In this document: positions 42,680 through 48,879 of the stretch, in pieces | Layout: each line of letters begins with the position of its first letter | Numbering within the stretch: the stretch's first letter is position 1 | Assembly: GCA_950072105.1 (NCBI GenBank) | Contig: CATMOE010000017.1 | Coordinates: 1 to 57,474, forward strand | DNA from: an uncultured Dehalococcoidia bacterium | GTDB lineage: Bacteria > Chloroflexota > Dehalococcoidia > Lucifugimonadales > UBA3495 | DNA: 57,474 nucleotides | Reading direction: 5' to 3' | Position numbers and translations under genes: made by a program | The notes under the pieces: model-generated | Seen by the model: the letters and a program-made list of their open reading frames with translations, nothing else | What the model was told of the DNA's origin: nothing | Database searches by the model: none

Positions 42680-42752
42680 GGCTGTCAGCTTTCAGCGCTC
42701 AGCTTTCAGCACAGTGTTCTTGCTGATAGCTGTCGGCTGAACGCTGATAGCT
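42680..42752. repeat. Heptamer arrays in inverted orientation forming a hairpin (family B)
   Basis: GCTGTCAGCTTTCAGCGCTCAGCTTTCAGC ... GCTGATAGCTGTCGGCTGAACGCTGATAGC. Confidence 0.8.
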
Positions 42753-43194
42753 ATAAAAAATCCTTACGCAAGGGATGGCCTTCAAATCCTTCCCATAGCA
42801 TGATCCGCTTCATATTAGGGTGTCCTTGGAAATCGACGCCCATCAAGTCCCAGACCTCCCGTTCCTGGAAATCGGCCCCCCGCCACACGTGATAAACCGA
42901 TGGCACAGACAAGGACTCACGCCCGTGTAACCTGGTCTTGATCACGGCGGTGTGCTGGAGACGGAAAGAGGTCAGGTGATATACGACGTCGAAATACTCG
43001 ATGAAATCTATGGCGCTGATCGCGTTGAGAAACTGGAAGTCTAGGGAAGAGTCATCCCGCAGAAACCGGGCAACGTCCTCGACTTTCGAGGAATCCACCC
43101 ACACAACCTCTTCTTCCCACCGCTCCACCGAAGCCGGGACACCTGCGCTAAGACGCTCCGCCAACTCCGCCCCGGTCAATGCCTGAACCGGCAT
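42751..43194 (-). CDS. nuoC: NADH-quinone oxidoreductase subunit C
   Basis: EREVWDLMG..GHP..GHPLRKDF. Confidence 0.95.
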   Translation of the reverse strand: MPVQALTGAELAERLSAGVPASVERWEEEVVWVDSSKVEDVARFLRDDSSLDFQFLNAISAIDFIEYFDVVYHLTSFRLQHTAVIKTRLHGRESLSVPSVYHVWRGADFQEREVWDLMGVDFQGHPNMKRIMLWEGFEGHPLRKDFL

Positions 43195-43895
43195 CAGGGA
43201 TTGCCTTGTGAACCGGGGACGCCGTCTTCCGGCAAAGTTTCCACGGGAGGCCTTTCAGCGGTAACCTGTCCGGAGATGGGTGGACGGGCGGACTTGCCCA
43301 TGTTGCGGTATTTTTTGATCTTCTCGTGCAATTCCATGATGCCGAATAGCAGGGCGTCGGGGCGGGGCGGGCATCCTGGCACGTAAACATCGACGGGGAT
43401 TATGTGGTCCACGCCGGGCACCACGCTGTAGGAACCGTAATAAGGGCCGCCGCTGGTGGCGCAAACCCCCATGGATATCACCCACTTGGGGTCGCCCATC
43501 TGATCGTAGATCCGCTGGATCGCCGGGGCCATCTTCCAGGTCACGGTGCCCGCGACAATCATCAAGTCCGCCTGGCGTGGCGAAGCCCGGAAAGCCTCCA
43601 TGCCGAAGCGGGCGATGTCGAACCGGCCCATGGCGGTGGCAATCATCTCGAAGGCGCAACAAGCCAAGCCGAACGTGACGGGCCACAGAGCGGACTTCCT
43701 GCTCCAGTTGATCAAGGCGTCCACCGACGTAACCACCAGGTTGCCCTTCAGGTCGTCGGGAACTTGAATAAAAGGCTCAGCCAAGGGTTCGGTCGATGAG
43801 TCCTTCAGCCCTTGGACCGTCCTCCCTTCTTCCCGGTCGATGTCCCAGGTTCGGCTGTTGAGAGGTCCGTCTTCGTTGGATATCTCCGAGCTCAA
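43194..43895 (-). CDS. nuoB: NADH-quinone oxidoreductase subunit B
   Basis: [22 protein letters not shown]. Confidence 0.96.
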
Positions 43896-43901
43896 TTCAG
43901 C

Positions 43902-44285
43902 CTACCCCCACTCCAGATCTCTTTTGCGCCAAGCGTAGGCCCAGCCCACCAACAGAATGAGCACGAAGACCAGCATTTCAATGAGAGCGAAAAGCTCCAG
44001 TTGGAGGAACTTGGCCGCCCAGGGATAGAGAAACACCACTTCAACGTCAAAGATGACGAAGAGGATGGCATACATATAGTAGCGGAAATTAAAGAGGTTC
44101 CAACGGCCCCCGATGGCTTCCATCCCGCACTCGTAGGTCTCCAGTTTCACGGGGGTGGGATTGGTGGGACGTAGGCCCAGCCGGGACATCATCCAAGAGG
44201 CAGTCACCATACTGATAGGAACGAAAAGAGCGACGCCGAAGAAGATGGCGATCAAGCCATATTGGCGGAAATAATCGTCTAGCAT
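43902..44285 (-). CDS. nuoA: NADH-quinone oxidoreductase subunit A
   Basis: [19 protein letters not shown]. Confidence 0.96.
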
Positions 44286-44523: not shown

Positions 44524-45288
44524 ATGCCTCAACCCAAGCTGCTGATCGCCACGGGCAACCCGGGCAAGATGCGGGAGTATCGCGATCTTCTACGGGCCGT
44601 TCCGTTCCAACTCGTTTCCCTTTCCGACATGGGCATCACTGATGAGGTAGAAGAAACCGGGGTCACGTTTCACGAGAACGCAGCCCTGAAGACCAGCGGT
44701 TACGCCGCCCTCAATGGGCTGCTAACTTTGGCCGACGACTCAGGTCTTGAAGTTGATGCCCTGGACGGTGCTCCCGGAGTCTATTCCGCCCGCTACGGGG
44801 AACTTCCGTCAACGCCGACTGATCAATTCCTCCCAGGAACCGGGCAAGAGGGCAAAATGACTGACGAAGACCGGGTCGCGCTGCTTCTCCGCAACCTGGA
44901 GGGCGTTCCTTGGGAGCGGCGAACCGCCCGATTCCGCTGTGTTATAGCCATCGGGAGGCCTAATCAAGAAGGGGGCGAGCGGACCGGGAGCGATTCTCAA
45001 GCCGGCGAGGAAATCCCCCCAACCCCCCTTTACGAAAGGGGGGCTTTTAGTGGGTTAACTTTCATGGTGGGGTCGGTTGCGGGAATGATACAATATGAGC
45101 CGGTGGGTGACGAAGGATTCGGCTACGATCCGGTGTTCTACCTGCCCTCATTCGGCCAAACCCTGGCCCAGATTTCTTTGGCTGATAAGAACCTTATTAG
45201 CCATCGTTCAGACGCGGCCCGCAAAGCGGTGGCATTCTTGACCGATAAGCTTTCGGCGATCAACGATAGGCCGAATGCTGACATCTGA
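44524..45288 (+). CDS. rdgB: Non-canonical purine NTP pyrophosphatase (RdgB/HAM1) with repeat-derived insertions
   Basis: ATGNPGK, ADDSGLEVDAL..PGVYSAR, GFGYDPVF, KNLISHR. Confidence 0.93.
   Translation: MPQPKLLIATGNPGKMREYRDLLRAVPFQLVSLSDMGITDEVEETGVTFHENAALKTSGYAALNGLLTLADDSGLEVDALDGAPGVYSARYGELPSTPTDQFLPGTGQEGKMTDEDRVALLLRNLEGVPWERRTARFRCVIAIGRPNQEGGERTGSDSQAGEEIPPTPLYERGAFSGLTFMVGSVAGMIQYEPVGDEGFGYDPVFYLPSFGQTLAQISLADKNLISHRSDAARKAVAFLTDKLSAINDRPNADI
45011..45045 (+). repeat. Family A palindromic repeat inserted in frame in rdgB
   Basis: AAATCCCCCCAACCCCCCTTTACGAAAGGGGGGCT, translated as EIPPTPLYERGA. Confidence 0.85.
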
Positions 45289-45306
45289 AAAGGACAAAAC
45301 CTTCGA

Positions 45307-46320
45307 GTGATAACCGATACCATGGGCAGGCCTCTCAAGGACCTGCGAATCTCCGTAACCGACCGATGCAATTTCCGCTGCACCTACTGCATGCCGGCGG
45401 AGATCTTCGGCGAAAGCTATAAATTCCTTCCTAAGAACGAGATCCTCAGCTTTGAGGAGATTGCGCGCCTCGCCCGCATTTTCGTTGAGTTCGGCGTCAA
45501 CAAACTGCGAATCACCGGTGGCGAACCTCTCTTACGGACCGACCTGCACAAACTGATCGCCATGCTGACCGGCATGCCAGGCTTGGAAGACTTGACGCTC
45601 ACCACCAACGCCTTTCTCTTGCCCCAGCAAGCCCAGCAGCTCAAGGACGCCGGGCTACAGCGGGTTACGATCAGTTTGGACACTTTGGACGATGAAGTCT
45701 TCAAAGAGATGAACGGCCGGGGAATCAGCATCGACCGGGTGCTGAAGGGCATCGATGCCGCCGCCGCAGTCGGGCTGGCTCCCATCAAGATCAACGCCGT
45801 AGTCCAGAAAGGAGTCAACGACCACACAGTGGTGGACCTAGCCCGCCACTTCAAAGGGTCCGGCCACATCGTCAGATTCATTGAATACATGGACGTAGGC
45901 AACCGAAACGGTTGGAAGTGGGACCAGGTGGTGCCGGCGGCGGAGATCGTCCAGCAGATCGACGCCGAGATGCCCCTGGAGCCGGTGGACAGCAACTATC
46001 CCGGAGAGGTCGCCAATCGCTATCGCTACCGGGACGGCCAGGGAGAGATCGGCGTCATCTCGTCGGTGTCCCAGCCCTTCTGCGCCAACTGCACCCGATC
46101 CCGGTTGTCCACCGACGGCAAGCTCTACACCTGCCTGTTCGCCAGCACGGGAGTGAGCCTGCGAGACGAGATGAGGGCCGGAGCCAGCGACGATGACCTC
46201 CGGAACTTGATAACCCGAATCTGGACCCGCCGCACCGACCGCTACTCGGAAGAGCGGACCGAACTGGCCTCTCTTCAAAACGTCCCAGCCAAAGTCGAGA
46301 TGTACCAGATCGGCGGCTGA
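45307..46320 (+). CDS. moaA: GTP 3',8-cyclase (radical SAM)
   Basis: LRISVTDRCNFRCTYC, TGGEP, RFIEYM, FCANC..C, C-terminal IGG. Confidence 0.96.
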   Translation: MITDTMGRPLKDLRISVTDRCNFRCTYCMPAEIFGESYKFLPKNEILSFEEIARLARIFVEFGVNKLRITGGEPLLRTDLHKLIAMLTGMPGLEDLTLTTNAFLLPQQAQQLKDAGLQRVTISLDTLDDEVFKEMNGRGISIDRVLKGIDAAAAVGLAPIKINAVVQKGVNDHTVVDLARHFKGSGHIVRFIEYMDVGNRNGWKWDQVVPAAEIVQQIDAEMPLEPVDSNYPGEVANRYRYRDGQGEIGVISSVSQPFCANCTRSRLSTDGKLYTCLFASTGVSLRDEMRAGASDDDLRNLITRIWTRRTDRYSEERTELASLQNVPAKVEMYQIGG

Positions 46321-46347
46321 CCGCCGATAACTGAAAGCTGATGGCTT
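46316..46347. repeat. Heptamer repeat (family B) overlapping the moaA stop codon
   Basis: GCTGACCGCCGATAACTGAAAGCTGATGGCT. Confidence 0.7.
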
Positions 46348-46353
46348 ATAGGA

Positions 46354-47277
46354 TTGACTACTACTAACGCCATAACCATATACACCGACGGCTCATGCCT
46401 AGGTAATCCCGGCCCCGGAGGCTGGGGCGCCTTAGTATTTGGCGAGTCTGAAGTGCCGCGGCGTCTCTCGGGGCATGAGGCTCAGACCACCAACAACCGC
46501 ATGGAATTGATGGCGGCGATCCAGGGATTGGAGGCCGTTCCAGCTGGGTCGAAGGTTGTACTCCACAGCGACAGCAGTTATTTGGTCAACACCATGACCA
46601 AAAATTGGAAGAGGCGGGTGAATCATGACCTGTGGGAACGCCTTGATGCCCTTTCCGGGTCCCACAACGTGGAATGGCGCTGGGTGCGTGGGCACAATGG
46701 GGACCGATGGAACGAAGCGGCCGACCGTCTGGCGGTGGCTGCCATGAACATCGCCGCCGGCCGTGATTCCGGAGCCGCTTCCGAGCCTGAGAAACCCGCC
46801 AAGTCATTGACCCATATCGACGATGAGGGCCGGGCCCGCATGGTGGACGTGGGAGACAAGCCCGTCACCGACCGGGAAGCCACGGCCAAGGGACACGTCA
46901 CGGTCCAGCCCGAAACCCTCAGGTTGATCAAAGAGGGGCTGATGAAGAAGGGAGACGTTCTCACCATCGCCCAACTGGCCGGAATAATGGGAGCCAAGCG
47001 CACCTCCGAGTTGATACCCCTCTGCCACCCCTTGCCCCTGAATCAGGTGAGCGTCGACTTCGAACTGGACGAATCCAACAGCCGGATAGAGATCACCGCC
47101 AGCGCGCGCACCTCGTCGAAAACCGGCGTGGAGATGGAAGCCCTTACCGCCGTGTCCATTGCCGCGCTCACCGTCTACGACATGTGCAAGGCCGTGGACC
47201 GGGGCATCCGCATCGAGAACATCCGCTTGGTGCGCAAGCGAGGAGGCCAGAGCGGGGACATCACCCTGGAGGAATAG
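46354..47277 (+). CDS. rnhA-moaC: Fusion of ribonuclease HI (N-terminal) and cyclic pyranopterin monophosphate synthase MoaC (C-terminal)
   Basis: [36 protein letters not shown]; linker; [33 protein letters not shown]. Confidence 0.93.
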
Positions 47278-47305
47278 TCTCCCGTGGTGATTCGTTGATC
47301 GTCAG

Positions 47306-48043
47306 ATGGAGATTCGCCCCGGCATTCACCAGGTCCCCGGACTAAAGTGGAGCAACGCCTATCTGCTGGTGGAAGACGAGGGCCTGACCCTTATCGACGG
47401 CGGCATCCCCGGTGACGGATCGAAGATCCTCCGTTATATCAGCTACCTGGGGCACACTCCGCAGGATCTGACTCGCATCGTCCTTACCCACAGCCATCCG
47501 GACCATTCCGGTCCCATGAAAGAGCTGTCCCGGATAAGCGGCGCCACCATCGCCGTGCACGAAAAGGATACCCGGTACCAGCCGAAGACCGGCGGACGGA
47601 GGCTACATTATCCCGGCCAACCGCCAGCGTTCGATTGGAACGTCCCTTTCCTCCGCCGCATCCCTGCCCATGAAACCATCGAGGATGGACAGATATTGCC
47701 CGTTATGGGCGGACTGCAGGTGCTTCACACGCCGGGACATACACCGGGCAGCGTGTGTCTCCACCTGCCTGAACACGGGGTACTATTCACCGGAGACATA
47801 CTGCTGTCCAACGGGCGCCGCTTCCGCCGCCCCGTCTATTTTCCCGGAACCGATCTGAAGGACTACCGGGCATCGGTGGAGCGGCTGGCGGGGTTGACCT
47901 TCGAGACAGCTTGCGGGGGCCACGGAGACCCGATACTTGAGGAGGGGACCGCCCGTCTCCACGAGATGCTGGACAGCTATTCGTGGATCAGCCCCCGCTG
48001 GACCGAGCTCAAACGCTGGGCCCGGTTACTATTCCCCCACTAA
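47306..48043 (+). CDS. Metallo-beta-lactamase-fold hydrolase
   Basis: THSHPDH, TPGHTPG, FTGD, GHG. Confidence 0.9.
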   Translation: MEIRPGIHQVPGLKWSNAYLLVEDEGLTLIDGGIPGDGSKILRYISYLGHTPQDLTRIVLTHSHPDHSGPMKELSRISGATIAVHEKDTRYQPKTGGRRLHYPGQPPAFDWNVPFLRRIPAHETIEDGQILPVMGGLQVLHTPGHTPGSVCLHLPEHGVLFTGDILLSNGRRFRRPVYFPGTDLKDYRASVERLAGLTFETACGGHGDPILEEGTARLHEMLDSYSWISPRWTELKRWARLLFPH

Positions 48044-48231: not shown

Positions 48232-48618
48232 CTACCCACCCCGGTGCCGAAGCTCCTGACGCAGCAGCCGTATCGCCGTGGCCGCGTACACGATGTACTC
48301 CTCGTCCGGCAATTCCAACTCAGTGAATCGCTCAACTTGGTCGATGTCCATGATCCCTTGGATCCCTGGCATCACCGACAGGTCCATCTCGCAGATCTCG
48401 CCCTCGGGCAACACCACCACGCAGCCATGGTCCGCGGTGGGCGCGAAGGGGGGCTCCAACTCCACGGCCTGCAACGAATCCATGTTAAGAAAGGCCGGAA
48501 AAGGCCGCAGACTCTGGGCCAACTCGGCCAACAGTTCTCTAAGCCGCGCCGCCGCGTCCCGGAGGACGGATTCGGCGGCCACTAGGATGTCTTCTTTTTC
48601 GTCTTGTTTTGGGTTCAT
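48232..48618 (-). CDS. Hypothetical protein
   Basis: 128-aa ORF with protein-like acidic composition and a TATCAT -10-like box upstream. Confidence 0.65.
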   Translation of the reverse strand: MNPKQDEKEDILVAAESVLRDAAARLRELLAELAQSLRPFPAFLNMDSLQAVELEPPFAPTADHGCVVVLPEGEICEMDLSVMPGIQGIMDIDQVERFTELELPDEEYIVYAATAIRLLRQELRHRGG

Positions 48619-48804: not shown

Positions 48805-48879
48805 GGCGACGTAGCTCAGCGGCAGAGCGGGCGCTTCATAAGCGCTAGGTCACTGGTTCGAACCCAGTCGTCGCCACCA
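48805..48879 (+). tRNA. tRNA-Met (CAT), elongator type
   Basis: GGCGACG/CGTCGCC acceptor stem with paired G1-C72, TAGCTCAG D arm, anticodon loop TTCATAA, GGTTCGAA T loop, encoded CCA; tRNA-Ile2 not formally excluded. Confidence 0.93.

Follow-up and report, generated by a model that had tools for sequence, protein, structure and literature searches.

The basic protrusion of RNase HI is regarded as important for gripping the substrate. MoaC, which takes the product of MoaA as its own substrate, is usually hexameric (a trimer of dimers) and tolerates a large N-terminal domain, as in the eukaryotic MoaA-MoaC fusion MOCS1A-MOCS1B; MoaC is not known to bind nucleic acids. The MoaC fusions listed in NCBIfam (MoaB, MobA, MOSC) are C-terminal. 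RNases H without the protrusion, or handle, are reported to be weak or dependent on a partner domain (PMC1950709, PMC7466739). In the handle-less B. halodurans-type RNase H, an N-terminal hybrid-binding domain is said to compensate (PMC1950709). In the actinomycete RNase HI/CobC-type acid phosphatases, namely M. tuberculosis Rv2228c, M. smegmatis MSMEG_4305 and S. coelicolor SCO2299, the partner domain is suspected of supplying the protrusion function by authors quoted in PMC7466739, which also describes the linker length as variable among homologues.

The window, i.e. the whole stretch of 57,474 nucleotides that was analysed, belongs to a member of the Dehalococcoidia (Chloroflexota) and contains, at positions 46354..47277 of the plus strand, one uninterrupted open reading frame of 307 aa plus stop, with a TTG start and no in-frame stop. 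Residues 1-134 (46354..46755) form an RNase HI domain, with the Pfam model RNase_H (PF00075) matching residues 5-131 at 125.3 bits (cut-off 25.8), and residues 152-307 together with the stop codon (46807..47277) make up a MoaC domain, with PF01967 matching residues 163-298 at 203.5 bits (cut-off 27). The linker between them, residues 135-151 (46756..46806), is predicted to be disordered. D12, E51, D73, H114 and D124 of the fusion align with D10, E48, D70, H124 and D134 of E. coli RNase HI. Residues 3-158 of the 161 in E. coli MoaC are covered by the alignment, and its active-site residues K51, K67, H77, E112, E114, D128 and K131 are all matched, by K199, K215, H225, E260, E262, D276 and K279. 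These seven are invariant across 29 aligned fused proteins, down to 40% identity, and in the same alignment T45, T46, N47, N48 and N90 of the RNase H half, presumably hybrid- and phosphate-contact positions, are conserved. The MoaC half lies above the NCBIfam equivalog and subfamily cut-offs (TIGR00581, 208.4 vs 141.5; NF006870, 235.6 vs 162), and the N-terminal half lies under that of the RNase HI equivalog NF001236 (143.8 bits vs 160). Its basic protrusion (46597..46635, plus strand) is truncated to 13 residues, compared with 27 in unlinked RNase HI of the same order; aligned to the E. coli enzyme, 3 + 10 residues are absent from this region. The first-pass annotation, made from the letters of the DNA, had claimed one frame joining RNase HI and MoaC without a stop, all five catalytic positions, a complete MoaC and a shortened protrusion, and each of these is borne out; the linker that it described does join the two domains, at a length of 17 aa and not the ~20 it had estimated.

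The TTG start at 46354 follows immediately upon an AGGA, with zero spacer, and several fused relatives in the alignment also begin with L, which suggests non-ATG starts there too. Judging from these letters, initiation of the fusion gene may be weak or coupled. Within the window sequence no Shine-Dalgarno-like sequence was seen by eye before the TTG of residue L152. A GAGGG located 10 nt before the ATG of residue M163 encodes conserved residues, and a start at M163 would drop the conserved LTH strand.

The fusion gene is the third of four genes on the plus strand, separated by gaps of 18, 33 and 28 nt. The first, at 44524..45288, encodes an rdgB/Ham1-family non-canonical purine NTP pyrophosphatase of 254 aa (Ham1p_like, 172.3 bits; TIGR00042, 147.3 with a cut-off of 145.35), and the second, at 45307..46320, is moaA, encoding the radical SAM GTP 3',8-cyclase (Radical_SAM and Mob_synth_C; TIGR02666, 403.6 bits with a cut-off of 284). 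The last gene on the strand, at 47306..48043, encodes an MBL-fold hydrolase (Lactamase_B, 116.6 bits). An rdgB-moaA-fusion-MBL operon had been proposed in the first-pass annotation; this arrangement is present here, with the fusion following moaA, but its conservation is partial: among 17 fused loci, 8 have rdgB-moaA immediately upstream and 2 have the MBL gene downstream, so that the association of the latter with the fusion is not conserved. A contig from an RNA library covers 45300-47757 and is compatible with a moaA-fusion-MBL transcript, though it is not proof of transcription. No Moco riboswitch or other RNA element was found in the operon with Rfam at the gathering threshold, the only match being a tRNA gene at 48805..48876 (plus strand, 69.5 bits). 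The profile matches of the RdgB/Ham1 protein fall into two segments (about 6-149 and 180-242), and the protein is longer than the models, which have ~185-200 positions; it therefore carries insertions relative to them. Convergent to the operon, the minus strand holds a 128-aa ORF at 48232..48618 without any Pfam match, which is kept downstream of moaC in four related loci (L016, L017, L019 and L022) at 45-60% identity, and three minus-strand ORFs at 42751..44285 look by eye like nuoC, nuoB and nuoA.

The fusion is widespread in its order. Among the matches listed for 101 genomes sampled from the order of the window, 70 carry the fusion (63 as a single match, 6 as one frame with a longer linker, and G079, in which a single ORF was confirmed), 20 have a separate RNase H gene directly upstream of moaC, and in 7 the two genes are unlinked. 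One further genome (G075) has no MoaC at all, and 3 genomes, which are 71-81% complete, gave no match. In the other orders of the class, 15 of 115 genomes have the fusion and 2 of 115 the adjacent arrangement. In a sample of 401 genomes from the phylum nothing was found outside the order at E ≤ 1e-66; as this threshold misses long-linker fusions, which show up as two separate matches at E ~1e-62 to 1e-65, the phylum-wide result is a lower bound only.

The genome of the window (G000, 4.1 Mb) contains one RNase_H match and one MoaC match, both of them in the fusion gene, and it also encodes RNase HII and MoaE. Its 22 MoCoBD_1 paralogs, the Moco-binding subunit of xanthine/CO-dehydrogenase type, are found on many contigs and imply a high demand for Moco; together with MoaE and the moaA located 33 nt upstream, they place the MoaC half in a Moco-pathway context. 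With the fusion as query, no second RNase HI was detected in 58 of the 70 fused genomes, nor in any of the 11 genomes with a short-handle gene adjacent to moaC, and all 7 unlinked genomes possess an RNase HI with a long handle. A large and abundant group of marine bacteria appears to depend, for its RNase HI, on a form with a truncated protrusion that is either fused to a metabolic hexamer or coupled to it in translation.

Of the 70 fused loci, 42 were compared with all 20 adjacent pairs and with 20 unlinked RNase HI genes, of which 8 come from the 7 unlinked genomes and 12 are second copies in fused genomes. The protrusion segment measures 13 residues in all 42 fused and in 11 adjacent genes, and 27 residues in all 20 unlinked and in 9 adjacent genes. 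In the maximum likelihood tree, this 14-residue deletion separates the short from the long forms on a single branch, with 100/99 support and presence in 100% of the bootstrap trees. The class sample shows the same division, in that 10-15 extra residues are present in all 40 listed unlinked RNase H matches and in none of the 5 MoaC-linked ones listed separately. Short-handle copies are fused to moaC or lie directly upstream of it in 53 of the 55 cases examined, the exceptions being two standalone copies in G075. The catalytic set of the fused domains reads DEDH-D in 33 and DEDH-N in 9 of the 42, and in 3 adjacent RNase H genes DEDH-H. Both N and H are tolerated substitutions at the position of E. 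coli D134, and PDB holds structures of the D134N and D134H mutants of the E. coli enzyme. The median net charge of RNase H is -1.5 in the short-handle forms, +2 in the free genes and +5 in the adjacent genes with a long handle. For MoaC it is -1 when fused, and -1 and -2 when unfused, i.e. MoaC is not more basic when fused.

The two copies in G075 are located on contig 2 in near-identical repeats (L173:845-2437 and L174:687-2393) about 10 kb apart. The repeat is at least 3.5 kb long. Both copies carry a gene for a rolling-circle Rep-like protein of 358 aa (PF23343 REP_ORF2-G2P, 33.4 bits) and one for a standalone RNase H of 149 aa with a short handle, which falls within the fused forms in the tree. 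The repeat has the appearance of a mobile element whose nuclease was acquired from the MoaC-fused clade. Other architectures also occur. L116:477-1838 in G038 and the protein P0121 are three-part ORFs of 454-464 aa, in which an intact short-handle RNase H is followed by a degenerate RNase H-like domain (with G-E-G-V-A at the catalytic positions) and by MoaC. In the divergent fusions P0126, P0140 and P0218 MoaC is intact and the RNase H half is without D10-, H124- or D134-equivalents. P0129 and P0145 are RNase HI-MoaC fusions with a full-length basic protrusion, and probably represent independent fusion events. P0133, with 509 aa, consists of three tandem RNase_H domains and has no MoaC.

The position of the RNase H gene suggests how the fusion arose. 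In 41 of the 62 linked loci it is flanked by moaA and moaC, a position that none of the 20 free genes occupies. The 3' end of moaA immediately precedes RNase H in 26 of the 42 fused loci, in 8 of the 11 adjacent loci with a short handle and in 7 of the 9 with a long one. Stop/start overlaps (ATGA, TTGA or TAATG) occur in about half of the 20 separate pairs. In the MoaC tree the fused, adjacent and unlinked states interleave, with 14 changes of the state 'fused', at least 4 of them forced, and the MoaC of the window is sister, at a support of 96, to the MoaC of two members of its own family, G024 with split genes and G078 with unlinked genes. The ancestral arrangement would have been a moaA-rnhA-moaC operon in which the stop of rnhA overlapped the start of moaC (ATGA); a small change of frame would merge the two genes into a single ORF, and its reversal would separate them again. 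As rnhA and moaC are separate genes in 20 relatives, often with an ATGA overlap, the change between fused and split forms is easy in both directions, and the history of the locus may be read as one deletion in the handle along with easy, repeated fusion and fission. In two close relatives (L016 and L022) moaA is directly followed by moaC, and the C-terminal half of the linker resembles the N-terminal tail of their unfused MoaC, as seen when the DNA of the junction was translated by eye. I also considered a remnant of the RNase H gene in the 480-nt gap between moaA and moaC of G078 (L017), but no credible match was found there; what lies in the gap is a small unrelated ORF whose C-terminus is rich in Cys (L017:3503-3982), and the idea was rejected.

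An AlphaFold2 model, based on the alignment of 29 fused proteins, has a mean pLDDT of 86.8 and two confident domains, with a pTM of 0.48. The RNase H domain is mostly above a pLDDT of 90, and residues 138-153 of the linker, with a pLDDT < 50, are the sole internal segment of low confidence. As the linker is disordered and the pTM is only 0.48, no fixed packing between the domains is expected. In the region of the protrusion the model has a helix (75-83), a loop (84-90) and another helix (91-103), and the protrusion helix is absent. Foldseek recovers the RNase H fold, with a TM (target) of 0.74-0.78 to E. coli RNase HI, and gives a TM of 0.88-0.93 to MoaC structures. In the 42 fused genes the linker ranges from -2 to 62 aa, with a median of 14, and is rich in A, P, G and S and not conserved.

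I consider it fairly probable that the fusion consists of two independent enzymes on a flexible linker, both predicted to be active, whose fusion arose from a moaA-rnhA-moaC operon. Both domains keep complete catalytic sets and are under purifying selection. The task of the MoaC half would be cPMP synthesis from the MoaA product, in a genome that is rich in Moco enzymes, and the RNase H half would act as the housekeeping RNase HI despite the deletion of 14 residues from its protrusion. If the MoaC half forms the usual hexamer, each particle would carry several nuclease domains. It is not certain, however, that the RNase H half is fully independent, because it scores under the equivalog cut-off, its protrusion is truncated and handle-less RNases H are reported as weak or partner-dependent; the lower basicity of the short-handle domain, relative to free and long-handle forms, is another point against full independence. 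Should the halves be independent, the order would offer a clean natural case of operon-to-fusion interconversion, with 70 fused, 20 split and 7 unlinked arrangements among 101 genomes.

Alternatively, the two halves may be functionally coupled, with the short-handle RNase H dependent on MoaC, whose hexamer would offer a multivalent scaffold or whose surface would stand in for the reduced substrate-binding region, an explanation that I regard as possible but on the unlikely side. Compensation by the MoaC hexamer had been raised as a possibility in the first-pass annotation. The explanation draws on the deletion as the mark of one well-supported clade, nearly all members of which are linked to MoaC and which includes none of the 20 unlinked genes, on the matching division in the class sample, on the translational coupling of many separate rnhA-moaC pairs through their stop/start overlaps, and on the precedents of CobC in Rv2228c and of the B. 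halodurans hybrid-binding domain (PMC7466739, PMC1950709). However, the short handle became associated with moaC in one phylogenetic event, and as the locus is stable, synteny alone is sufficient to explain the association. Furthermore, 11 of the short-handle genes are not covalently joined to moaC, a standalone copy persists on the Rep-bearing repeat of a genome without MoaC, and fusions with a full-length protrusion exist. The variable linker and the lack of interdomain packing in the model do not point to coupling either, nor does the charge of the fused MoaC. If the halves were coupled after all, this would be a second, independent case after Rv2228c of a cofactor enzyme replacing the handle of an RNase H.

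In a stronger form of this dependence, the MoaC hexamer would be an obligate platform, on which six weak, handle-less nuclease domains act by avidity on long RNA:DNA hybrids and serve as the sole RNase HI of most members of the order. I hold this to be doubtful. If true, the loss of the protrusion would have been solved in a new way, cofactor metabolism and genome maintenance would be physically connected, and the dosage of the nuclease, and possibly its activity, would be tied to Moco synthesis from GTP.

Very improbable, in my opinion, is that the RNase H half has given up the role of a housekeeping nuclease and has become a structural or regulatory appendage of MoaC, or acts on a different substrate. 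The truncated protrusion and the near-neutral charge of the domain would fit such a role, as would the degenerate halves of P0126, P0140 and P0218, which have lost catalytic residues and therefore show that the nuclease is not maintained everywhere, and the degenerate second domain in G038 and P0121. However, all 42 fused loci keep D-E-D-H plus D or N, the presumed contact positions are conserved, and the domain is the only type-1 RNase H detected in the genome of the window and in 58 of the 70 fused genomes. Substitution rates are also against it: for pairs of fused or short-handle genes with unsaturated dS, the dN/dS of the RNase H domain was 0.085, 0.085, 0.096, 0.110, 0.145 and 0.253, comparable to that of free RNase HI (0.04-0.10), with 0.05-0.21 for MoaC. 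One near-identical pair gave 0.58 for RNase H, on very few changes.

That an assembly or sequencing error in the linker merged two genes can be dismissed, since, for all the separate genes in 20 of 101 relatives and a possible frameshift in L136, four independent runs bridge the linker without an indel, the 99%-identity cluster of the fusion protein has 94 member sequences, the best 120 clusters all carry both domains, and the 70 fused genomes of the order include single-contig ones. The fusion is real. No insertion or deletion occurs anywhere in the ORF in the contigs from the DNA runs X10 and X11 or in those from the RNA-library runs X14 and X15, and the 10 variants listed inside it are all synonymous, by codon arithmetic on the window sequence; the stretch itself was found in runs of 15 studies. 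In a collection of 5.8 billion proteins, the best 120 clusters at 90% identity carry PF00075 together with PF01967 in 120 of 120 cases, down to 66% identity and from many sources, some on contigs of 2.4-5.4 Mb, and a search of the whole library at 50% identity lists a few dozen fused representatives. Sequence support across the linker and a domain-architecture search with its taxonomic spread had been suggested as checks in the first-pass annotation, and both come out in favour of the fusion. Relatives with separate genes, which the same annotation had held to count against it, do exist, but the fusion stands beside them, with a frame that is confirmed by the contigs.

In a full-text search of the published literature, with subscription journals outside its scope, I found no paper on an RNase H-MoaC protein, in agreement with the first-pass annotation, whose reader knew of no characterised example. 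The sole source name seen for a full-length protein of this type (P0003, NCBI) is 'cyclic pyranopterin monophosphate synthase MoaC', and three other listed matches carry the JGI name for this enzyme. As the fusion is named only after its MoaC half, genomes may be wrongly scored as being without RNase HI. What is new is the clade of short-handle RNases H, the history of its locus and its copy-number context.

Each half of the protein by itself is close to a known enzyme. The RNase H half shares the five catalytic residues, the fold and about 45% identity with E. coli RNase HI (PDB 2RN2, 1RNH and mutants), from which it differs in the absence of 13-14 protrusion residues, in being fused or translationally coupled to MoaC, and in falling under the NCBIfam equivalog cut-off. 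The MoaC half resembles the cPMP synthases of E. coli and T. thermophilus (PDB 1EKR, 4PYD, 2IDE) over the full length, at about 52% identity and with a conserved active site, but in contrast to these the fusion carries an N-terminal RNase H plus linker of 151 residues. In MOCS1A-MOCS1B, the partner of MoaC is the preceding enzyme of the pathway, whereas here it is a nuclease. In the B. halodurans type (PMC1950709), as in the fusion, an RNase H without a handle has an accessory domain beside it; there, however, the accessory domain is a nucleic-acid binder, and MoaC is a metabolic enzyme. A parallel in architecture is the Rv2228c type, which according to PMC7466739 also has an N-terminal type-1 RNase H without the full basic protrusion, fused to an enzyme of cofactor biosynthesis. 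However, the partner there is CobC of the B12 pathway and here MoaC of the Moco pathway, the model for the bifunctional RNase H/acid phosphatase (NF005567) gives the fusion only 47.2 bits against a cut-off of 326, and the RNase H half is of the E. coli type with a 14-residue deletion, its best matches in PDB being E. coli RNase HI, at E ~1e-32.
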